From positions 10,289 through 74,288 of the forward strand of contig CAZROO010000004.1 of the NCBI GenBank assembly GCA_964601735.1: a stretch of 64,000 nucleotides of DNA, given 5' to 3'. The DNA is from an uncultured Pseudomonadales bacterium (GTDB lineage: Bacteria; Pseudomonadota; Alphaproteobacteria; UBA2136; UBA6156). Every line of letters begins with the position of its first letter. The first letter of the stretch is position 1. The position numbers and the translations under genes are program-made. Shown here piece by piece: positions 14,113-61,193 of the stretch. The notes beneath the pieces were generated by a model. The model searched no databases. It worked only from the letters and a program-made list of their open reading frames with translations, and was not told the DNA's origin.

Positions 14113-14224
14113 GGCGTGCTTATAGCTGACGTGTGGCGTGGGGCAAGCCTTAACTGCCACAGGGGGCGGCACCGCCATACGGTTGGACGTAGAAATAAAA
14201 ACGCCGGGCATGGTAAACCAACGT

Positions 14225-15196
14225 ATGCAAAAGTGGGTTGGACTTGTTGCCGTATTGCTGGTGCTGGCCGGTTGCGCCAGCGAACCCGGGGAAACCGGGA
14301 TGGAACGGGCGCCCGATAACGAGGCCTTCCGGGCGTTCTACCAGCAGGTGAAGGACGGCTTGAGCGCGCGCCAGGCGCGGATTTTCTCTGAGGCTTTCCA
14401 CGGCAATATCGAGCCCTACGGCGTGGCACAGGTGGCCCGCAAAAACCAGCCCGAGCTGGTGAAAAGCTTTGAGGATTACGTAGGCCCGATGCTGAAGGCC
14501 GAGCGCGTGGCCGTGGCCCGGCAGAAGCTGGATGAGAACCGCGACGTGCTGGAACGCATTGCCACCCGCACCGGCGTGCCGCCGGAAGTAATGGTGGCGC
14601 TGTGGGGCATCGAGACCAGCTTTGGCCGCGTGCAGGGGACTCACCCTGTGATTCCGGCGCTGACCACGCTGGCGTGGCATTCCAACCGGCCGGACTTTTA
14701 TAATAAGGAACTGCACGCGGCGCTGGATTTGATTGAGCGCAACGAGCTGAGCCCGGACATCAAGGGCAGTTGGGCCGGGGCGGTAGGGCAGCCGCAGTTT
14801 ATGCCCAGCACCTATTTGAAGGCGGGGGTCGACGGTGACGGCGACGGCAAGATTGACCTGTTCAACGACCTGCCGGACGTGTTTGCCAGCACGGCGAACC
14901 TGCTGAAGCTGAACGGCTGGAAGCGCGGGCTGGCGTGGCGGCTTCCGTTACCCGAAAAGGCCAAGGTGCCTGCCGGGCTGACGCTGAACGAGCGAGGGCT
15001 GAGTGAGCCGTTTGATGCCAGCGGGTTGAGGCTGGCGGGCATCGCCGACGGCGAGAAGTACCGCTACTACAAGCCGCAAAGTGATGCGCCCGCGTTTTTG
15101 CTGGGGCCCAACTTCACCGCCGTGCTCAAGTGGAATAACTCCAGCTACTTTGCTTATGCGGTGCTGACGTTGGCGGATATGCTCAGGGAGGATTAG
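14225..15196 (+). CDS. mltB: lytic murein transglycosylase (MltB family) lipoprotein
   Basis: Lipobox VLAGCAS. WGIETSFG and other MltB/Slt35 motifs are present. Confidence 0.8.
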   Translation: MQKWVGLVAVLLVLAGCASEPGETGMERAPDNEAFRAFYQQVKDGLSARQARIFSEAFHGNIEPYGVAQVARKNQPELVKSFEDYVGPMLKAERVAVARQKLDENRDVLERIATRTGVPPEVMVALWGIETSFGRVQGTHPVIPALTTLAWHSNRPDFYNKELHAALDLIERNELSPDIKGSWAGAVGQPQFMPSTYLKAGVDGDGDGKIDLFNDLPDVFASTANLLKLNGWKRGLAWRLPLPEKAKVPAGLTLNERGLSEPFDASGLRLAGIADGEKYRYYKPQSDAPAFLLGPNFTAVLKWNNSSYFAYAVLTLADMLRED

Positions 15197-15290
15197 AGGA
15201 TGAGAGGGTTAGAGGGCAAGAGGAAGAAGAGGGCGTGTTTTGGGATGAGTCCCCTTTTATCCTCTTATCCTCTTATCCTCTCGTCCTTTC
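15191..15290. repeat. purine-rich/pyrimidine-rich long hairpin repeat (GAGGATRAGAGG family)
   Basis: GAGGATGAGAGGGTTAGAGGGCAAGAGG ... loop ... CCTCTTATCCTCTTATCCTCTCGTCC. The same motif recurs at 51795-51840. Confidence 0.55.
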
Positions 15291-16180
15291 TGTTGGCAGG
15301 TTGTACGGAAGTGCAGGTATTTTCGCATTTGATGAAGCGCAGCACCGCCAGCTGCGCGACCGAGGGTACCCCCAAGGTAGGTAATCCTTATATGGTGGAC
15401 GGCGTGCGCTACGCGCCGATGGGCAGCAGCGCGGGGTATCATGAAAAGGGCATTGCCAGCTGGTATGGGGATGATTTCCACGGTTTGGCTACCGCCAACG
15501 GTGAATGCTACAATATGTATGCCTACACCGCCGCCCACAAGACGCTGCCGATGCCCACCGTGGTGCGCGTGACCAACCTGGAAAACAACAAGAGCGTGAT
15601 TGTGAAGGTGAACGACCGCGGGCCGTTCGTGCGCGGGCGGTTGATTGACCTGAGCTACGCCGCCGCGCAAAGCCTGGACATTGTGCGCATGGGCAGTGCG
15701 CCGGTGCTGGTGGAGGCGATTGGTGGGCCATTTAACGGACCTGCCGGCGAAAGCGCCCAGTTGGCCGCTACCAGGGGTGGGGAAGGGGAGACGCTGGCGT
15801 CTACGCCTTCGCCCGGTACGCTGGAACAGAATTTGCCGAGTGCTTTTGGCAAGTCGGAGTCTGATGTTCCGCCGCCGGTGGCGCCGCAAAGCCTGCCCAA
15901 GCCGCCTGCGGGGCCTGCCCCCGCGACCTTGCCGCTGGTCAACAGCCGGGTGTTTGTTCAGGTGGGGGCGTTTGGGGATAATTCCCGCGCCGAGGCCGCT
16001 CTGGCCGACCTGAAAGGCATTGAGTCCAGCGCCCACACCGAGCAGACCACCACGTCGGCGGGCGCCAGCCTGACCCGCGTGCGCAGCGGCCCCTACGACA
16101 ATGTGGAGGACGCCGAGGCCGCGTTGACCAAGCTGGCCGGGCATTTCCCCGACGCCAAGATTGTGGTGGAGAAAAAATAG
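15245..16180 (+). CDS. rlpA: septal ring lytic transglycosylase RlpA (DPBB domain plus C-terminal SPOR domain)
   Basis: DPBB motif WYGDDFHG..TANGE..Y. C-terminal SPOR-like VFVQVGAF...AEAALADLK. Lipobox LLAGC. Confidence 0.8.
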   Translation: MSPLLSSYPLILSSFLLAGCTEVQVFSHLMKRSTASCATEGTPKVGNPYMVDGVRYAPMGSSAGYHEKGIASWYGDDFHGLATANGECYNMYAYTAAHKTLPMPTVVRVTNLENNKSVIVKVNDRGPFVRGRLIDLSYAAAQSLDIVRMGSAPVLVEAIGGPFNGPAGESAQLAATRGGEGETLASTPSPGTLEQNLPSAFGKSESDVPPPVAPQSLPKPPAGPAPATLPLVNSRVFVQVGAFGDNSRAEAALADLKGIESSAHTEQTTTSAGASLTRVRSGPYDNVEDAEAALTKLAGHFPDAKIVVEKK

Positions 16181-26591: not shown

Positions 26592-26666
26592 TCCGGCGTA
26601 GCTCAGCGGTAGAGCAACGGACTGTTAATCCGTGGGTCGTTGGTTCGATCCCAACCGCCGGAGCCA
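26592..26666 (+). tRNA. tRNA-Asn (anticodon GTT)
   Basis: TCCGGCGTAGCTCAGCGGTAGAGC ... anticodon loop CTGTTAA ... GGTTCGATCCCAACC GCCGGAGCCA. Confidence 0.85.
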
Positions 26667-26700: not shown

Positions 26701-26746
26701 ACTTTTTGATAAATTTTTAAATGAGGCAGGCAAAGAGAATACAGAA

Positions 26747-26839
26747 GGTTGGGATTGAACCAACGACCCACGGGTTGCGCCGAAGGCGCACTGTTTATGG
26801 AGAGGGCAGTCCGTTGCTCTACCGCTGAGCTACGCCGGA
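26747..26839 (-). pseudogene. tRNA-Asn-derived pseudo-tRNA (inverted partial duplicate with altered anticodon loop, no 3' acceptor strand)
   Basis: Minus strand repeats ~20 nt of upstream leader plus tRNA-Asn positions 1-33. A 32-nt insert then replaces TTAAT in the anticodon loop. The T-arm follows (1 mismatch) but the acceptor 3' strand and CCA are absent. Confidence 0.55.
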
Positions 26840-50224: not shown

Positions 50225-52279
50225 TTAGGGGTAGTAGGCCCAGCGACGGGTGTTTTTGATGAATGTTTTGGCGGGACATAAGTTACTGTTTTGATTAGTG
50301 ATTATGACGACGGCGCGATGGCAGTCGTCGGGCGTGGGGGCACCGTTGAGGACGGTGACGGGGCCGGCGGGGGTTTGGTAGGCACAGCCTGTACTATCAC
50401 ATTGACCGGGCTGGGGTTTTTCGGGACTGAGGGTATGACCCCAGCGCCGGGCCCAGCGGGTGGCGGCGTTGGTGTAGGATGGTGCAAGAATGATGCGGAA
50501 CTGTCGCCCTGACGTGCGGGAAAGGACAATTTCACCGCCGTTCAGCACCGCGATTGTCGGTGGCGTGGCACATAGTGATGCAGCGGTGGCCAAACCGAAA
50601 ATTGCAAATGTGAAAATAACGGCCCATAGCCATTCACACATGCAACAAAGCAGGAAGGCCACCAGGCACAACCCGGCCAGCGGCAGGCTGAAGCTTTGTG
50701 GCACGATAACCTGAGCTTGTGGCAAATGGGCCGCATAGGCGGCGATGGCGTTGGCAGCCTGGCAGACCCAGACCAGCGGCGATAGAGCCAGCCAGCCCAA
50801 GTGCAGCGGCCAGAGGGCCAGAACGACGAGACTCAGCCAGGTGCCGAGCGCGCCCATCAACGGTACGGCAACGAGGTTGGCAGGCAGGCTGACGAGGCTG
50901 ACCTGGCCGAAAATGTAGGCCACCAGAGGCAGGGTGGCGAGCCCGGCGACGAGGCTGGTGACAGCGAATTGGCGGAGGTGGCCCAGCATCCAGGCGAGGC
51001 GCCCATGCCCCTTCCCCGCGCCGAGAATACCGGCCGCTTGCGCCAGAATGAGGCCGAGCGTGGCGGAAAAACTAAGCTGGAAGCCCGCGGTAAGGGCGCT
51101 TTCTGGCCACAACAGGCACATGCCCGCCAGCGCCACGGCCCAGGCGCGGAGGGCTCCGGAGACCCGCCCGGCCACCACGGCAGCGAGGAAGAATGAGACC
51201 ATCACCGCCGCGCGGACGACGCTGACCCCGGCCCCGGCGATAAGGGTGTAGAGCGGCACGGCGGCCAGCCCCACCAGCGCGGCGTAGAGGCGTATATTAT
51301 GCGTGAGCGCGAGGCGCGGCCAACAGGCCAGAAGCCGCCGCACCAGCCAGAAAATGCCCAGCCCGGCGACGCTGAGCTGCATGCCCGATATAGCCAGCAG
51401 GTGGGAAAGCCCGGCGTTTCTATACGCGTTGTTGACTTCGGGCGGAATGCCGGAGGTATCGCCCACCAGCAGGGCGGTGACAGTGCCTTGGGCGAGTTTA
51501 TTGGTTTTTTGAGTTATATCGGCACGGAAATTATCTATGGCTGAGCTTTGTTGTAAGCCCCCAATGGATGCCATGCCCCCCTGAGGGGGGCGGCATGACG
51601 GCTGTGTTATAGAGGGTTGACTGAGCTGTGGTTGGGCTTCGCAGGGAGGATTACCCGGCAGGGTAGTGAGGGCCAGGCGGCCCTGGACGTAGCCGTGGCC
51701 TACCTCGGCCTTGTAGCGGGAGAACGGGCGAAAATCGCGGTCGCCGGGAAAGGCGGGGGCGTCGGGCGGGAAGAGGAGGATTTGGGCGGCGATGGCTATA
51801 GGATGAGAGGATAAGAGGGTTAGAGGATGAGAGGGGATTTGAGCGCTTTGCGCGGCATTATCAATCACCCCCAATGGATGCCTTGCCCCCCTCGAGGGGG
51901 GCGGGATGGCGGCGCCCCCCACAACACCAGTTTCAGCCAGGTTTTGATGGTTACCTGCCTCAGCCAAGAGGTTTTGGAAGCGGTGGGTGTTGACGCCCAG
52001 GGCCAGTTTGGCGGGGATTCCAGTGGTTTGGTAGCCGGTGACATCGCTGAGATAGAGGGTCAGGCGGTCGGGATTGTCGTCGTGGAGGCGGATATTGGTG
52101 AGGCGACCCGTCACCCAGTGGGGTTTTGCGGCCAGGTTCTGCCAGTTTATGGGCGTATTGCGCCAGTGGGCCGGGAGGGGTAAGTTACTGTAAAGACACA
52201 CTAAAGTTGCCAAAAACACGCAGATGGCCGCCGCCAGCAGGGGCCATTCGTTTTTGAGGGCTTTGGCGAGGCCGTCCAT
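50225..52279 (-). CDS. comEC: ComEC/Rec2-family DNA internalisation channel protein (no metallo-beta-lactamase domain), with ~130-aa in-frame repeat-derived insert
   Basis: Competence domain (GLSHLLAISGMQLSVAG). N-terminal DUF4131-like TM region. The central segment is encoded by REP-like and GAGGATAAGAGG repeats. Cys-rich C-terminus. Confidence 0.7.
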   Translation of the reverse strand: MDGLAKALKNEWPLLAAAICVFLATLVCLYSNLPLPAHWRNTPINWQNLAAKPHWVTGRLTNIRLHDDNPDRLTLYLSDVTGYQTTGIPAKLALGVNTHRFQNLLAEAGNHQNLAETGVVGGAAIPPPSRGARHPLGVIDNAAQSAQIPSHPLTLLSSHPIAIAAQILLFPPDAPAFPGDRDFRPFSRYKAEVGHGYVQGRLALTTLPGNPPCEAQPQLSQPSITQPSCRPPQGGMASIGGLQQSSAIDNFRADITQKTNKLAQGTVTALLVGDTSGIPPEVNNAYRNAGLSHLLAISGMQLSVAGLGIFWLVRRLLACWPRLALTHNIRLYAALVGLAAVPLYTLIAGAGVSVVRAAVMVSFFLAAVVAGRVSGALRAWAVALAGMCLLWPESALTAGFQLSFSATLGLILAQAAGILGAGKGHGRLAWMLGHLRQFAVTSLVAGLATLPLVAYIFGQVSLVSLPANLVAVPLMGALGTWLSLVVLALWPLHLGWLALSPLVWVCQAANAIAAYAAHLPQAQVIVPQSFSLPLAGLCLVAFLLCCMCEWLWAVIFTFAIFGLATAASLCATPPTIAVLNGGEIVLSRTSGRQFRIILAPSYTNAATRWARRWGHTLSPEKPQPGQCDSTGCAYQTPAGPVTVLNGAPTPDDCHRAVVIITNQNSNLCPAKTFIKNTRRWAYYP
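51558..51616. repeat. REP-like palindromic element, copy A (inside comEC ORF)
   Basis: CCCCCAATGGATGCCATGCCCCCCTGAGGGGGGCGGCATGACGGCTGTGTTATAGAGG, with a 7-bp G/C stem and 3-nt loop. Confidence 0.7.
51795..51840. repeat. GAGGATAAGAGG purine-rich repeat (same family as 15191-15290)
   Basis: GGATGAGAGGATAAGAGGGTTAGAGGATGAGAGGGG inside the comEC ORF. Confidence 0.6.
51868..51914. repeat. REP-like palindromic element, copy B (truncated, inside comEC ORF)
   Basis: ACCCCCAATGGATGCCTTGCCCCCCTCGAGGGGGGCGGGATGGCGGCG. Confidence 0.65.
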
Positions 52280-54428: not shown

Positions 54429-54447
54429 GGATTAGGTTTTAGGTGTT

Positions 54448-54475
54448 AGGGGCCCCTTGCGGGGCCGTTTTTATT
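54448..54475 (+). terminator. rho-independent terminator
   Basis: AGGGGCCCC-TTGC-GGGGCC followed by GTTTTTATT. Confidence 0.65.
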
Positions 54476-54524
54476 GAATTATTGGGAATTCACGTTTCTT
54501 TATCTCCAACCTTTGGAACATGCC

Positions 54525-54782
54525 ATGCCTTCCGCGGGTCATGAATTGAAACTCACATGGGTACCGCCCTCGCCCGTCGAGATAAAACAACTTCGTAAAA
54601 AGCTGGGGATGACCCAACTGGTGTTTGCGAGAACTTTTCGTTTAAACATTGGCACTTTGAAGGCTTGGGAACAGGGCCGCAACGAGCCTGAATGCTTTAA
54701 CGCACTGGTTTTGCTGATGCTTATCCGGGATACCGAAACAATATTACGGCTTATTGCCGCTGTTGTTCGAGATGAAAAATGA
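54525..54782 (+). CDS. XRE/YiaG-type helix-turn-helix protein (antitoxin-like), orphan
   Basis: IKQLRKKLGMTQLVFARTFRLNIGTLKAWEQGRNEP matches the YiaG/HigA-like HTH signature. No toxin partner in the window. Confidence 0.55.
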   Translation: MPSAGHELKLTWVPPSPVEIKQLRKKLGMTQLVFARTFRLNIGTLKAWEQGRNEPECFNALVLLMLIRDTETILRLIAAVVRDEK

Positions 54783-54808
54783 CGGCCCCTTGTGGGGCCG
54801 TTTTTGTT
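54782..54808 (+). terminator. rho-independent terminator
   Basis: ACGGCCCC-TTGT-GGGGCCGT followed by TTTTG. Confidence 0.6.
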
Positions 54809-54839
54809 TGGGTATAGGTGGTTTTGCTTATTTACTTAC

Positions 54840-55100
54840 CTTTTTCCCTGTTCAACTTCGCATGCCTGAGGTTTCGTGTAGCCTTGGATGACGCCTTCGG
54901 ATGGATGCGTGGTCATCCGATTGGAATGAGGGGCTTGACTCCACCCCCATGCGAATGCCGGAAGAATGAGGAGACGAAAACCGAATCTGTCTTTGGAAGT
55001 GGTGGTGGCGGCGTCCAAACCGTTACCGTTAGCCCTTCCGTTGGTGGACATTCCCCGGTCTTGCACGAGAAAGAACCCCTGGCGACAGGGGTTCTTTTTT
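54840..55100 (+). other. candidate structured non-coding transcript ending in a terminator (unidentified)
   Basis: No credible ORF. Internal hairpins (GATGACGCC-TTCG-GATGG...). Ends AGAACCCCTGGCGACAGGGGTTCTTTTTTAT. Confidence 0.2.
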
Positions 55101-55114
55101 ATGACTGTGGCTCC

Positions 55115-55172
55115 CACCCCGATGGATGCCCTGCCCCCTCAAGGGGGGCGGCATGACGGCGGTGTTATAGTG
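55115..55172. repeat. REP-like palindromic element, copy C (intergenic)
   Basis: ACCCCGATGGATGCCCTGCCCCCTCAAGGGGGGCGGCATGACGGCGGTGTTATAGTGG. Confidence 0.65.
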
Positions 55173-55179
55173 GTTTTTT

Positions 55180-55458
55180 CTTGCAGCGGTGGCGTTCTAC
55201 ATGACGCCCTTCGGGCGTTTTGGGCGTGGATGCCGGCCTGCGCCGGCATGGGGCGGTGTTTATGGTGACCTTTTGAAGGGTTCTGCTTTTGGGAGGGCAC
55301 CCGTCGAGGCCCCGGGAAACCCCCAAACCCCATCCTTCTCGCTTTTACGGTTGCCGGTTTGAGTGCCTTTGGCACGCATTATCGTGGATGCTGATCTTCA
55401 TCAGCATGACAGAGATTTGTGGATGGAAAAGAACCCCGCTTGGCGCGAGGTTCTTTTT
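55180..55458 (+). other. second candidate structured non-coding transcript with duplicated terminator; also a bidirectional terminator for gltA
   Basis: Hairpins GACGCCC-TTCG-GGCGT and ATGCCGGC-CTGC-GCCGGCAT. Ends AAGAACCCCGCTTGGCGCGAGGTTCTTTTTAT. Confidence 0.2.
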
Positions 55459-55465
55459 ATTCCTT

Positions 55466-56797
<1,332 letters not shown>

Positions 56798-59045: not shown

Positions 59046-59753
59046 TTATTGCTCCGGTTTAATGAAAATCCACCGGGTGGTTTCGTTGACCGCATAGTAC
59101 GGACTATATTGAATAACCGTTTCGGACGGAAGGGGTTGGCTGGCGAGGTTGTCGAGAATCATGTCGTGCCCATCGAGTTTGGCAGCGAGGATGGCGTGGG
59201 GCTCGTCGCGGACGGTATCTCGCAGAATGACGACGCGCAGACTAGCGTTGGCCCAGCCGAGCATGCGCAAGGATACGAACTTGGCGATGGCGTAGTCTTC
59301 GCAATCGCCGGATTTTTTAAGGAATTGCAGTGGCGTGGCCCAGTAGTCGGACTTGCCGTAGTTGTCGATATCCTCGATGTACGGGAAGCCGTTGAAGAAG
59401 CGGTTGACCGTGCGCATCTGCTGTGCCGGGCTCATTTCCTTTGCCGCGTCCATCATTTCGCGCCAGCGGCGGGCGCCGCTGGTGGGGCAGTCGTCGGCGT
59501 TATTTTCGCAGGCGTGGAGGATGCCGGATTCGTGGCGGATGCGGCTGAGGACATCGACCCATTTGGTGAAGCTGCTGATGTTGTCGCCTTTGAGTTCGAC
59601 GCGGCCGAAGAGACCTGCGGCGTGGGCGGGCGTTGCGATAAAAGTAAGCGCAAGAACTGAAACAACGCCTCCTAAAACAGACATGTGCGCGCTCGGGCGC
59701 GCGCTCTTATCGTGGATCCCGACCTTCGTCGGGATGACAGCGACATTCTGCAT
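59046..59753 (-). CDS. bacterial transglutaminase-like cysteine proteinase (BTLCP, LapG-like periplasmic protease)
   Basis: Signal/anchor VLALTFIATPAHA. Conserved GDCEDYAIAKF Cys plus downstream His and Asp. Start directly follows the HlyD stop with RBS GGAG. Confidence 0.75.
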   Translation of the reverse strand: MQNVAVIPTKVGIHDKSARPSAHMSVLGGVVSVLALTFIATPAHAAGLFGRVELKGDNISSFTKWVDVLSRIRHESGILHACENNADDCPTSGARRWREMMDAAKEMSPAQQMRTVNRFFNGFPYIEDIDNYGKSDYWATPLQFLKKSGDCEDYAIAKFVSLRMLGWANASLRVVILRDTVRDEPHAILAAKLDGHDMILDNLASQPLPSETVIQYSPYYAVNETTRWIFIKPEQ

Positions 59754-61193
59754 TTACCGCTCCGTTAACGCCGCCTCGCGCGCTTTGGTGATGGGCTTGA
59801 GCAGGTATTGCAGGATGGTCTTTTTGCCGGTTAGCACATCGACCGTGGCCACCATACCGCTTTTGATGGGGAGTTTTTGGCCGTGGTGCAGGAGGAAATC
59901 CTTATCGGCCCTGACCTGGATTTTGAAGTAGGTTTCGCCCTTGTCGGTGGTGAAGCTGTCGGCGCTCACATTACTGACGGTGCCCTTGAGGCCGCCGTAG
60001 ATGCTGAAATCGTACGCGCTGAGCTTGATGACCGCGGGCAGGCCGACGCGGATGAAGGCAATGTCTTGCGGCTTGACCTGCGCCTCGATCATCAGGCCTT
60101 CGTCGAGCGGCACCAGTTCGACGATGTTGGCGTTGGCCTGCACGGCCTGGCCCACTGTGTTGACGTGGATGTCTTTAACTTCGGCGCGGATGGGGGACTT
60201 GAGCACGCTCTGATCGACCTTGGAAATGTCGCCCTGCACGCTGGCGCCGAGGCGGTTCAACTCGTCGCGCATTTTGCCCTGGTCGTCGCGGGCCTCGTTT
60301 TTGAACTTGAGCACGGCTTCGTCGAGCTTGCCCTGGGCTTCGCGGATGCCGGCTTGCGCGCTGGGGATAGCGACCTGGGCCGTATTCAACTGGCGGCGGG
60401 CGTCGATGACCGCGCGTTGCAGGCGCAGGACTTCGACCTGTGCCACGGCGCCGGTGGCCACGTAGGGCGTGGTTTTGTCGAGTTCTTCCTTGGCGTTGTT
60501 GTAGGCGTCCTGAAAGTTGCGGGTTTTGCTCTGGGCGTCTTGCAGGTCGGCTTTTTTCTGCTCGAGCTGCTCTTTATAGACGCGGGTGGTGCTGTCGAGC
60601 TCGGCCTTGCGGCTGTTGTAGAGGTTTTCGGCTTCGGTGGCGATTTGCGGGGCCTTTTGCTTCACTTCGTCGGGGATATCGAGCGGCTTGTCGTTCAGTT
60701 CGGCGTCGATGCGGGCGATGTTGGCCATAAGGTAATAACGGCGGGCTTCCTTTTCATTCAACCCGGCGGTTGCGGCACGGGGGTCGAAGCGCACCAGTTC
60801 CTGCCCGGCCTGCACCACATCGCCCGGCTTGACCAGGATGGCGGTGATGACGCCGCCGTCGGAACTGCCCACGGCCTGCACCTTGCCGCTGGGGATGACC
60901 AGCCCCTGCCCGCGCGCGACTTCGTCGAGGCTCGCAAACCCGGCCCAGAGCAGGAACAACGTCATAAAGCCGCCAAGCACCCAGAACAACAGGACGCTGG
61001 CCGGGTGGGCGCCGCGCAGCGTGGCCTGCTGCACGTCGTCCATGAAATCGCCGTCGCCCCAGTTGTCGGGGTTCAGGCCTTCCTGGACGATTTTTTTGGC
61101 CTTGGTGATGGCCGAATGGGTTTGGTCGTGACTGACGCTCACGCCCATCGAGCGGGTCAACTTATTGTCGAGCAGGTCGAAACGTTTTTTCAT
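59754..61193 (-). CDS. type I secretion periplasmic adaptor (HlyD/LapC family)
   Basis: Single N-terminal TM, long coiled coil, C-terminal beta-barrel. HlyD T1SS signature. Confidence 0.85.
   Translation of the reverse strand: MKKRFDLLDNKLTRSMGVSVSHDQTHSAITKAKKIVQEGLNPDNWGDGDFMDDVQQATLRGAHPASVLLFWVLGGFMTLFLLWAGFASLDEVARGQGLVIPSGKVQAVGSSDGGVITAILVKPGDVVQAGQELVRFDPRAATAGLNEKEARRYYLMANIARIDAELNDKPLDIPDEVKQKAPQIATEAENLYNSRKAELDSTTRVYKEQLEQKKADLQDAQSKTRNFQDAYNNAKEELDKTTPYVATGAVAQVEVLRLQRAVIDARRQLNTAQVAIPSAQAGIREAQGKLDEAVLKFKNEARDDQGKMRDELNRLGASVQGDISKVDQSVLKSPIRAEVKDIHVNTVGQAVQANANIVELVPLDEGLMIEAQVKPQDIAFIRVGLPAVIKLSAYDFSIYGGLKGTVSNVSADSFTTDKGETYFKIQVRADKDFLLHHGQKLPIKSGMVATVDVLTGKKTILQYLLKPITKAREAALTER

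Follow-up and report, generated by a model that had tools for sequence, protein, structure and literature searches.

In-frame CGTC-type palindromic repeats in two loops of ComEC from an uncultured alphaproteobacterial lineage

Results

comEC and the repeats at its locus

The window, by which we mean the whole 64-kb stretch of DNA analysed here, carries on its minus strand a comEC gene whose 684-aa open reading frame (50225-52279) is uninterrupted through two copies of a palindromic repeat, REP A and REP B, and a purine-rich repeat block. A third copy, REP C, is intergenic. With three shorter hairpins of the canonical CGTC type, the window holds three long-stem and three canonical hairpins, all six in the same orientation. 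The features are listed below with the evidence used to define them.

15184-15292, plus strand: further site of the purine-rich 8-nt family, with two inverted arms that fold into a ~110-nt hairpin (blastn, motif searches, fold)
50225-52279, minus strand: comEC, ComEC/Rec2 family, 684 aa (ORF, Pfam, 281 homologues, AF2, synteny with L002 and L003)
51545-51640, minus strand: insert 2 (aa ~214-245; about 20-26 aa), not in orthologues; REP A plus module CTATAACACAGCCGTCAT
51565-51600, minus strand: REP A hairpin, encoding aa ~227-239, SCRPPQGGMASIG (pattern matches, alignments, RNA fold)
51797-51958, minus strand: insert 1 (aa ~108-161; about 51 aa), not in orthologues (DNA and protein alignments, AF2)
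51798-51834, minus strand: purine-rich 8-nt repeat block (AGGATGAG-type units on the plus strand), encoding PSHPLTLLSSHPI (TRF, blastn, motif searches, alignment)
51875-51911, minus strand: REP B hairpin, the shorter copy, encoding aa ~124-135, AIPPPSRGARHP (pattern matches, strain contigs)
55123-55158, minus strand: REP C hairpin, intergenic, between a convergent HTH gene and citrate synthase gene (pattern, nhmmer, blastn)
55227-55253, minus strand: canonical CGTC-type hairpin in the REP C intergenic cluster, reverse complement CCCC-ATGCCGGC-GCAG-GCCGGCAT-CCA
55385-55411, minus strand: canonical CGTC-type hairpin in the REP C intergenic cluster, reverse complement TGTC-ATGCTGAT-GAAG-ATCAGCAT-CCA
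59713-59739, minus strand: canonical CGTC-type hairpin at a gene junction, reverse complement TGTC-ATCCCGAC-GAAG-GTCGGGAT-CCA

The encoded protein runs from an N-terminal transmembrane helix through an OB-like beta domain (aa ~54-205) and the Competence channel domain (PF03772, aa 270-549, E = 9.7e-54) to a small Cys-rich domain at the C-terminus. Its AF2 model (mean pLDDT 83.7, pTM 0.83) contains a five-stranded beta domain that aligns with homologues carrying PF13567; pLDDT drops below 50 only at aa 120-154, aa 213-242 and the last three residues (682-684), and confident strands lie on either side of both low-pLDDT segments. Pfam gave no match to the N-terminal OB domain (PF13567/DUF4131) in this ComEC or in its orthologues P0002 and P0003, and a Foldseek search of the model against the PDB returned nothing significant, with only weak SSB-type OB folds at E ~1. 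Neither of the Pfam metallo-beta-lactamase domains (PF00753, PF12706) was found, and this domain is also missing from most close ComEC homologues among those listed; ComEC versions that lack it are already known (PMC12455585). The closest named relatives of both ComEC and citrate synthase are Alphaproteobacteria MAGs.

Three long-stem palindromes of the CGTC type

The pattern CCCCAATGGATGCCNTGCCCCCCT matched at 51559, at 51869 and, with three mismatches, at 55117, against an expectation of 0 (100 shuffles; 64 kb). A tighter two-arm pattern recovered the same three sites, and an nhmmer profile built from the three copies detected no fourth within the window. Two copies thus lie within comEC and one is intergenic, as the initial annotation had proposed in describing in-frame palindromes inside an intact comEC and a third copy outside it. 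Its figure of 250 bp for the spacing of the intragenic copies has to be replaced by 310 bp start to start, with 267 bp separating the cores.

From tail to tag the REP hairpins measure 36-37 nt. On the comEC sense strand REP A reads CGTC / ATGCC-GCCCCCC / TCA / GGGGGG-CAT-GGCAT / CCA, and REP B reads CGCC / ATCCC-GCCCCCC / TCGA / GGGGGG-CAA-GGCAT / CCA; the CGCC tag of REP B in the window is CGTC in strains L004 and L005. REP A, unchanged in all five strain contigs covering it, folds with its surroundings at -29.4 kcal/mol (71 nt). REP C with its flanks is 88.9% identical to REP A over 54 nt, and the similarity between these two spans about 80-108 nt, module CTATAACACNGCCGTCAT included, whereas REP B shares only ~45 nt; the ~18-nt flanking module beside REP A (CTATAACACAGCCGTCAT, 51595-51612) is common to REP C. 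REP A and REP B are translated in different frames (SCRPPQGGMASIG and AIPPPSRGARHP, the latter corresponding to the V-I-P frame canonical for CGTC REPs), which places their similarity at the DNA and not the protein level. As regards the terminal inverted repeats and target-site duplication that mark a MITE, the sole candidate is a 13-nt direct repeat (85%) on either side of REP A (51538-51550 and 51618-51630), which was not seen at copy C; the available orthologues are too diverged to give an empty site for a comparison of target duplications. REP C coincides exactly with the boundary of a gene cassette that varies between strains.

The superfamily of CGTC REPs, hosted mostly by Alphaproteobacteria, is defined by a CGTC tag, a stem starting with AT and a CCA tail (Di Nocera, De Gregorio & Rocco 2013, BMC Genomics 14:522; PMC3733652). 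The tag is an unpaired terminal tetranucleotide beside the stem, for which TGTC or CCTC is tolerated, and the families have stems of 8-9 bp, loops of 4-5 nt and tens to thousands of copies per genome (PMC3733652). In the window, the tag is CGTC in REP A and REP C, CGCC or (in other strains) CGTC in REP B and TGTC or CCCC in the canonical hairpins, and every copy reads ...CGTC-AT...AT-CCA. The hairpins at 55227, 55385 and 59713 have an 8-bp stem and a 4-nt loop, as do both hairpins of the second comEC allele described below. Since REP A, B and C have stems of 12-13 bp with a 2-3 nt bulge (and loops of 3-5 nt) instead of the 8-9 bp of the described families, they are, on sequence grounds, a long-stem structural variant of CGTC REPs. 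A RAYT, suggested earlier as a partner to be sought for the repeat, is not to be expected: the tag is CGTC and not GTAG, and CGTC elements have no known dedicated transposase (PMC3733652). A non-exhaustive survey of 10 small ORFs of the window revealed no Y1 transposase domain.

The exact two-arm long-stem pattern had no match in genome contigs and none in metagenome contigs although it works locally, and the lineage is therefore absent from both contig collections. When a composite of six-frame translations of the repeat was compared with 5.8 billion proteins, none of the 109 candidates reached E <= 10. Searching plasmids with the REP element by blastn gave no match, and Rfam at gathering thresholds detected only tRNAs in the window.

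A second repeat family

The purine-rich block was delimited by TRF as a repeat of period 8 with 4.4 copies (51800-51834), and its motif was counted eight times against 0.37 expected. The long hairpin at 15184-15292, which folds at -59.9 kcal/mol (z = -6.0), has one arm homologous to this block. The block reported by the initial annotation is thus real, but it adjoins REP B and does not lie midway between the two copies.

Two inserts flank a conserved core of the OB domain

Where a single low-complexity linker of ~130 aa had been proposed to join the OB region to the competence domain, we found two inserts flanking 44 strictly conserved residues. Insert 1 is a composite that joins REP B and its flanks to a spacer and to the arm of the second repeat family that is pyrimidine-rich on the sense strand, and it lies in the interior of the OB domain between the third and fourth strands, in a loop of 64 aa as against a median of 11 (range 8-21) in 89 homologues. 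Insert 2 occupies the junction of the OB and channel domains, in a loop of 40 aa as against a median of 9 (range 7-25) in the same comparison. The core between them (aa 162-205) is conserved ComEC OB-domain sequence and measures 43-45 aa (median 44) in all 89 homologues. Both inserts are missing from the closest syntenic orthologues, P0002 (L002) and P0003 (L003), and from 87 further homologues; a homologous linker in the orthologues, which could have overturned the idea of repeats inserted in the gene, did not come to light. The nearest empty sites are orthologues at only 54-59% identity, and the insert bounds are therefore approximate; there is no closer empty site because no ComEC of >34% identity was found among the related loci of the genome collection.

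Strain alleles and selection on comEC

Two alleles of the comEC insert are carried by co-occurring strains. In allele 2 (strains L001 and L007), two canonical CGTC-1 hairpins, encoding VIPAQAGIQ and VMPAEAGIH, stand in place of REP B; the swapped tract, on the promoter-proximal side of insert 1, is 165 nt long instead of ~126 nt, a difference of 39 nt or 13 codons that keeps the frame. The canonical hairpin of allele 2 is present in at least 120 metagenome contigs. Allele 2 probably stems either from repeat turnover or from recombination with a lineage that has diverged. The reading frame is open in every strain contig spanning the insert region, the second allele included, and internal stops are absent from all seven translated comEC genes of the window, strains and orthologues.

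The comEC genes of the window and L004 differ at 39 synonymous and 15 nonsynonymous positions (omega 0.13), and dN/dS amounts to 0.13-0.22 between strains and 0.24-0.29 against orthologues (0.26-0.29 against L002). Within the N-terminal 105 aa omega is 0.24-0.31, and the OB core has no nonsynonymous and three synonymous changes. These ratios indicate that comEC is under purifying selection and that the gene is maintained.

Three other candidate features were rejected. Two 449-aa proteins starting with MASIGG (P0125, P0128) had the appearance of products of a split gene, but their contigs start within the repeats or a short way upstream of them. The hairpins do not qualify as intrinsic terminators, as no T-run follows them and the sense strand has no terminator-like site, and a promoter-like match on the minus strand (51557-51530) was not above chance (2 found, 0.8 +/- 0.9 expected).

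Discussion

We consider it probable (roughly 80%) that REPs of the CGTC superfamily, together with a fragment of a second repeat, have inserted in two loops of ComEC, where they are tolerated while the gene is maintained. Small non-coding palindromes would have entered comEC at two places, namely the loop joining strands three and four of the periplasmic OB domain and the linker from the OB domain to the membrane channel, with a fragment of another dispersed repeat coming to sit beside one of them in insert 1. Selection would have spared only those insertions whose length was divisible by three, which had no stop codons and which fell in surface loops; the resulting ComEC, with two extra disordered loops, most likely still works. 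The inserts themselves would be neutral, and the first site would still be changing, given the other in-frame set of CGTC hairpins in co-occurring strains. Tolerance by ComEC is thus the alternative favoured by the data among those that the initial annotation had offered.

That annotation had also allowed for a comEC that is being inactivated, functionally split or decaying, its open frame a temporary accident. comEC is dispensable in many bacteria, three kinds of repeat have gathered in this copy, its product is 54% identical to that of L003 when citrate synthase reaches 95% for the same genome pair, and Pfam no longer detects the N-terminal DUF4131 domain. Nevertheless, inactivation appears very improbable in view of an omega of 0.13-0.22 between strains and 0.24-0.29 against orthologues that stays below 0.35 in the N-terminal part, with an OB core free of nonsynonymous changes; independent assemblies of several samples all have an open frame, as do two alleles that differ by 39 nt in length, AF2 forms a complete beta domain from the strands on either side of insert 1, and the sense strand shows no terminator-like site after the hairpins. 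A native low-complexity linker or a lineage-specific loop expansion, whose likeness to the intergenic copy would have arisen secondarily or by chance, is scarcely credible. Loop 2 does vary somewhat among homologues (7-25 aa) and only three copies are visible, but REP A and REP C are closely similar as DNA in different contexts and have a flanking module in common, REP A and REP B are read in different frames, the architecture fits a described repeat superfamily, and the same site in allele 2 has hairpins that recur in at least 120 unrelated metagenome contigs.

It is also unlikely that the intragenic hairpins have been put to use, be it as RNA structures governing the pace of translation or the stability of the message, as recombination hot spots by which the DNA-binding domain would be diversified, or as signals linked to genes of DNA uptake or repair. 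Their mRNA stems are stable (about -29 to -31 kcal/mol per 71 nt), alternative hairpin cassettes occur at one comEC site, REP C marks the edge of a variable cassette, and REPs are reported to be disproportionate in replication and repair genes, with ComEC hit independently in Wolbachia. The folding z-scores are weak, however (-2.6, -0.1 and -1.2), the orthologues and 87 further homologues manage without inserts, and the published view is that inserts located in loops are neutral. REP A is identical in all strains while dS of the gene is 0.03-0.08, but this identity covers only ~24 synonymous sites, at which ~2 changes are expected, and is not significant. Going beyond the preferred reading of tolerated insertions, CGTC-type REPs could still be turning over here, with the OB loop of comEC a hot spot for in-frame cassette exchange between strains, a proposal that we regard as unlikely. 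If true, it could mean hairpin-targeted recombination, or a link between the repeats and genes of DNA uptake or repair, a possibility raised because ComEC was hit independently here and in Wolbachia.

In-frame REP insertion is a known phenomenon, and the comEC case is a clear but fairly ordinary one. It provides a clean example, resolved at the population level, of selfish palindromes residing in a conserved membrane protein, pairs a structural explanation (disordered periplasmic loops) with evidence for purifying selection, and sets right the earlier notion that the repeats form a linker or that the gene is in decay. For annotation, it implies that genes with such in-frame repeats should not be flagged as pseudogenes. 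The strain-level swap of hairpin cassettes is a useful lead on the question of continued mobility of CGTC repeats as opposed to their exchange through recombination.

Comparison with known systems

The CGTC REP superfamily takes in Rickettsia RPE-4 (CGTC-4) and RPE-6 (CGTC-1) as well as Neisseria dRS3, and in-frame intragenic copies are on record, including CGTC-1 peptides such as VIPAKAGI (PMC3733652). The repeats described here share with it the CGTC/TGTC tag, the AT-first stem, the 3-5 nt loop, the CCA tail and the alphaproteobacterial host, in-frame intragenic copies, an intergenic copy between convergent genes and, in allele 2, peptides of the V-I/M-P-A-x-A-G-I type. They differ in the G6/C6 core that REP A, B and C have within a 12-13 bp bulged stem, in the conserved ~18-nt flanking module of REP A and REP C, and in the arrangement of the hairpins as singletons or same-orientation clusters and not as head-to-head dimers. 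GTAG REPs and REPINs are likewise short, GC-rich, dispersed palindromes that are usually extragenic, but the elements found here have no GTAG tag and no inverted doublets, and all six hairpins are co-oriented. Both CGTC and GTAG REPs are reported to be over-represented in replication and repair genes (PMC3733652).

As with the Rickettsia RPEs, palindromes have entered a conserved alphaproteobacterial gene in-frame at a tolerated site, the host protein is kept, and the orthologues of comEC are without the insert. RPEs, however, are ~100-150 bp long and encode a conserved peptide in one frame, whereas REP A and REP B are read in different frames and the sequence shared by REP B is much shorter; moreover, the host is here a GC-rich (59%) uncultured lineage and not a reduced AT-rich genome, with one affected gene seen so far in the 64-kb window. 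The nearest parallel in gene family is ComEC/Rec2 of Wolbachia wRi (WRi_011360), which has a CGTC-4 REP at aa 151-159 (PMC3733652, Additional file 3), again in the N-terminal part and from the same repeat superfamily. That protein has one 9-aa insert from another family, whereas the ComEC described here has inserts at two sites, one of them a composite of 51 aa, and is polymorphic among strains.

comEC and its orthologues

The features of the window that concern us here are the following:

50225-52279, minus strand, comEC ORF, 684 aa
51565-51600, minus strand, REP A, long-stem hairpin in comEC
51800-51834, purine-rich block in comEC, a period-8 array
51875-51911, minus strand, REP B, long-stem hairpin in comEC
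55123-55158, minus strand, REP C, long-stem hairpin, intergenic
55227-55253, canonical CGTC-type hairpin
55385-55411, canonical CGTC-type hairpin
59713-59739, minus strand, canonical CGTC-type hairpin, TGTC-ATCCCGAC-GAAG-GTCGGGAT-CCA

The ComEC protein carries a Pfam Competence domain (aa 270-549, E = 1e-53). There are 281 homologues (E <= 1e-10), the nearest orthologues being P0002 (600 aa, 59% BLASTP identity) and P0003 (604 aa, 54%). Their loci (contigs L002 and L003, respectively) share with the window the gene order citrate synthase, two Hydrolase_2 genes, comEC and UDP-glucose dehydrogenase, the L002 contig being without the citrate synthase end, and this common order marks both proteins as true orthologues. 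The host lineage is an uncultured alphaproteobacterium: its nearest named relatives by match are Alphaproteobacteria MAGs, and the best ComEC among species-representative genomes is 34% identical to the window protein. Between the window and the L003 organism, ComEC is only 54% identical and citrate synthase, on the same two contigs, 95%; ComEC is thus unusually fast-evolving in this lineage, with omega nonetheless ~0.2-0.3. Where a metallo-beta-lactamase nuclease domain would be (aa ~540-684, window 50225-50660), the protein has a small beta-rich C-terminal domain, modelled with high confidence, with conserved cysteines (CDxxGC ... DC ... C), as do many alphaproteobacterial ComEC homologues.

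Hairpin repeats in the window

The initial annotation had described palindromic repeats inside the comEC ORF, and their presence is borne out. Its pattern matched at 51559 and 51869, and with three mismatches at 55117, where chance predicts no match; a stricter two-arm pattern returned the identical three sites, and a profile built from the three long-stem copies found no further copy in the 64 kb. The spacing and size first given need small corrections, copies A and B lying 310 bp apart start to start rather than 250 bp. A 54-nt stretch is 88.9% identical between copies A and C, which also have the flanking module CTATAACACNGCCGTCAT in common; the similarity of copy B is confined to a ~45-nt core. 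Copy A, in the comEC sense orientation, is CGTC-ATGCC-GCCCCCC-TCA-GGGGGG-CAT-GGCAT-CCA, a plan on which copy C is also built; in copy B, strains L004 and L005 have the tag CGTC where the window has CGCC. The three canonical hairpins have a TGTC or CCCC tag, an 8-bp stem starting AT, a 4-nt GNAG loop and a CCA tail. The one at 59713-59739 sits at the junction of same-strand ORFs 59754..61193 and 59046..59753, either intergenic or part of the N-terminus annotated for the downstream ORF. Elsewhere, Rfam gives a weak tRNA match of 36 bits over 100 nt (window 26740-26839, minus strand), for which ARAGORN made no call; it adjoins tRNA-Asn 26592-26666.

Two separate loop inserts in ComEC

The comparison of linker length among orthologues, suggested in the initial annotation, showed the repeat-bearing segments to be absent from P0002 and P0003. 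Relative to these, window ComEC has ~51 additional residues around aa 108-161 (insert 1, with REP B and the purine-rich block), ~20-26 around aa 214-245 (insert 2, with REP A) and 7 unrelated residues in the channel domain, together making up the 84-aa length difference from P0002. The single ~130-aa linker originally proposed is therefore replaced by two inserts around a core (AAQILLFPPDAPAFPGDRDFRPFSRY...) that aligns residue for residue with the orthologues. Across 89 homologues (alignment A5), this core (aa 162-205) is 43-45 aa long (median 44; window 44), whereas loop 1 (aa 98-161) measures 8-21 aa (median 11) against 64 in the window, and loop 2 (aa 206-245) 7-25 aa (median 9) against 40.

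An AlphaFold2 model based on the same alignment (mean pLDDT 83.7, pTM 0.83) drops below pLDDT 50 in only two stretches, aa 120-154 and 213-242, and in the last three residues. These low-confidence segments are bordered by confident strands (92-97, 162-170, 194-205) and then a helix from 246, which places insert 1, as modelled, in the loop joining strands 3 and 4 of the N-terminal beta domain and insert 2 between that domain and the channel. The OB fold of Gram-negative ComEC, predicted to lie in the periplasm, binds DNA, and in OB folds the third and fourth strands are often separated by additional elements (PMC12455585).

The purine-rich block has a homologue elsewhere in the window, one arm of a hairpin of ~110 nt (15184-15292; -59.9 kcal/mol, z = -6.0) in which the 8-nt units form an inverted pair. 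Insert 1 is thus a composite of a CGTC hairpin and part of another dispersed repeat, which points to successive insertions into an already tolerant loop. The 15184-15292 hairpin lies between a 352-aa ORF (14138..15196) and ORF 15200..16180, putatively RlpA-like from its sequence; its pyrimidine arm overlaps an apparent lipoprotein signal peptide, MSPLLSSYPLILSSFLLAGC, which resembles the ComEC segment SHPLTLLSSHP.

Strain-level variation

Insert 1 has a second form in the strain contigs L001 (protein P0129, 697 aa) and L007. On its promoter-proximal side, ~126 nt of the window allele, REP B among them, give way to 165 nt, a difference of 39 nt or 13 codons. This second allele contains two hairpins of the canonical type, CGTC-ATTCCCGC-GCAG-GCGGGAAT-CCA (peptide VIPAQAGIQ) and TGTC-ATGCCGGC-GGAG-GCCGGTAT-CCA (VMPAEAGIH). 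At least 120 unrelated metagenome contigs contain the former when its third loop base is left free, often as head-to-head pairs. The variable tract ends sharply on the right at GATAATGCC, and both alleles retain the half of insert 1 that lies downstream, purine-rich block included. On the left, ~30 nt of adjoining native sequence are ~70% identical between alleles, against 99.6% over the first 285 nt of the gene, suggesting that recombination brought the tract in from a diverged lineage. In L004, gene nt 241-270 (window ~52010-52039) are 77% identical to the window between flanks of 97-100%; they encode GMPKNLALG instead of GIPAKLALG, and the resemblance of this version to P0002 suggests mosaic recombination.

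Downstream of citrate synthase (54440-55470) there are three CGTC-type hairpins in one orientation. At REP C, the module is present in strain contig L089 as far as CGTCAT, after which the two sequences are unrelated. Its homology to the window stops exactly after CTATAACACCGCCGTCAT and restarts at a terminator-like hairpin near 54440-54472, a different 137-aa gene replacing the 102-aa ORF 54474..54782 (putative HTH-like from its sequence); in the relative L003 both the gene and the hairpin cluster are missing. CGTC hairpins thus appear to turn over between strains both at comEC and at intergenic copy C. This bears on whether the repeats still move, and we consider it the most interesting residue of the analysis.

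Origin of the inserts and state of the gene

The suspicion that comEC is split or decaying found no support, and we regard decay as very improbable. Metagenomes of five JGI samples, assembled independently, contain the same gene (96-100% protein identity), and every copy covering the inserts is an open frame. Nei-Gojobori counts gave omega 0.13 for the whole gene against L004 (39 synonymous, 15 nonsynonymous changes) and 0.21-0.22 against the other full-length strain copies (L005, and L001 outside insert 1), with 0.24-0.31 for the first 105 residues, 3 synonymous and 0 nonsynonymous changes in the OB core between the inserts, and 0.29 and 0.24 against L002 and L003, respectively. No terminator-like site was found after either comEC hairpin on the sense strand. 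Two 449-aa gene calls starting MASIGG were considered as a split gene and rejected, their contigs beginning inside or just upstream of the repeats. A sigma-70-like match (CTTACA-16-GATAAT, 9/12, window 51530-51557, minus strand) in the REP A flank inside comEC was not above shuffle expectation; the next in-frame Met after it would truncate the channel domain.

Expansion of a native loop is hardly credible: copies A and B are read in different frames, so their similarity belongs to the DNA and not to the protein. Exaptation of the repeats, whether as RNA structure, as a hot spot of recombination or as a signal related to uptake, seems unlikely, if less so than either decay or loop expansion. 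We favour, with a probability of about 0.8, an account in which selfish hairpin repeats entered ComEC at two disordered loops in the periplasm, and selection filtered the insertions such that ComEC function was kept.

Comparison with known CGTC repeats

The window hairpins are built on the plan of the CGTC-tagged REP superfamily, which Di Nocera, De Gregorio and Rocco described (PMC3733652). Its members carry a terminal tag CGTC, with TGTC and CCTC as frequent variants; their stems measure 8-9 bp and almost always start with AT, their loops are 4-5 nt long and their tails fit CCA. They occur predominantly in Alphaproteobacteria and have no known dedicated transposase (PMC3733652). Rickettsia conorii RPE-4 and RPE-6 and the Neisseria dRS3 repeats also belong to the superfamily. 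Copies A, B and C differ from the published elements in their 12-13 bp bulged stems with a G6/C6 core, and searches of the genome and metagenome collections, of plasmids and of Rfam gave no match to this long-stem variant. REPs lying wholly inside ORFs, often of replication and repair genes, have been reported and argued to be probably neutral, since they are located in flexible loops (PMC3733652), and a 2024 review considers in-frame fusions by intragenic MITEs not unusual, with RPEs as the extreme case (PMC10969869). CGTC-1 elements encode peptides such as VIPAKAGI and SIPAKAGIQ (PMC3733652, Additional file 3). In-frame intragenic CGTC REPs are thus already known, including one in ComEC/Rec2 itself, that of Wolbachia wRi, with a CGTC-4 element at aa 151-159 (PMC3733652, Additional file 3).
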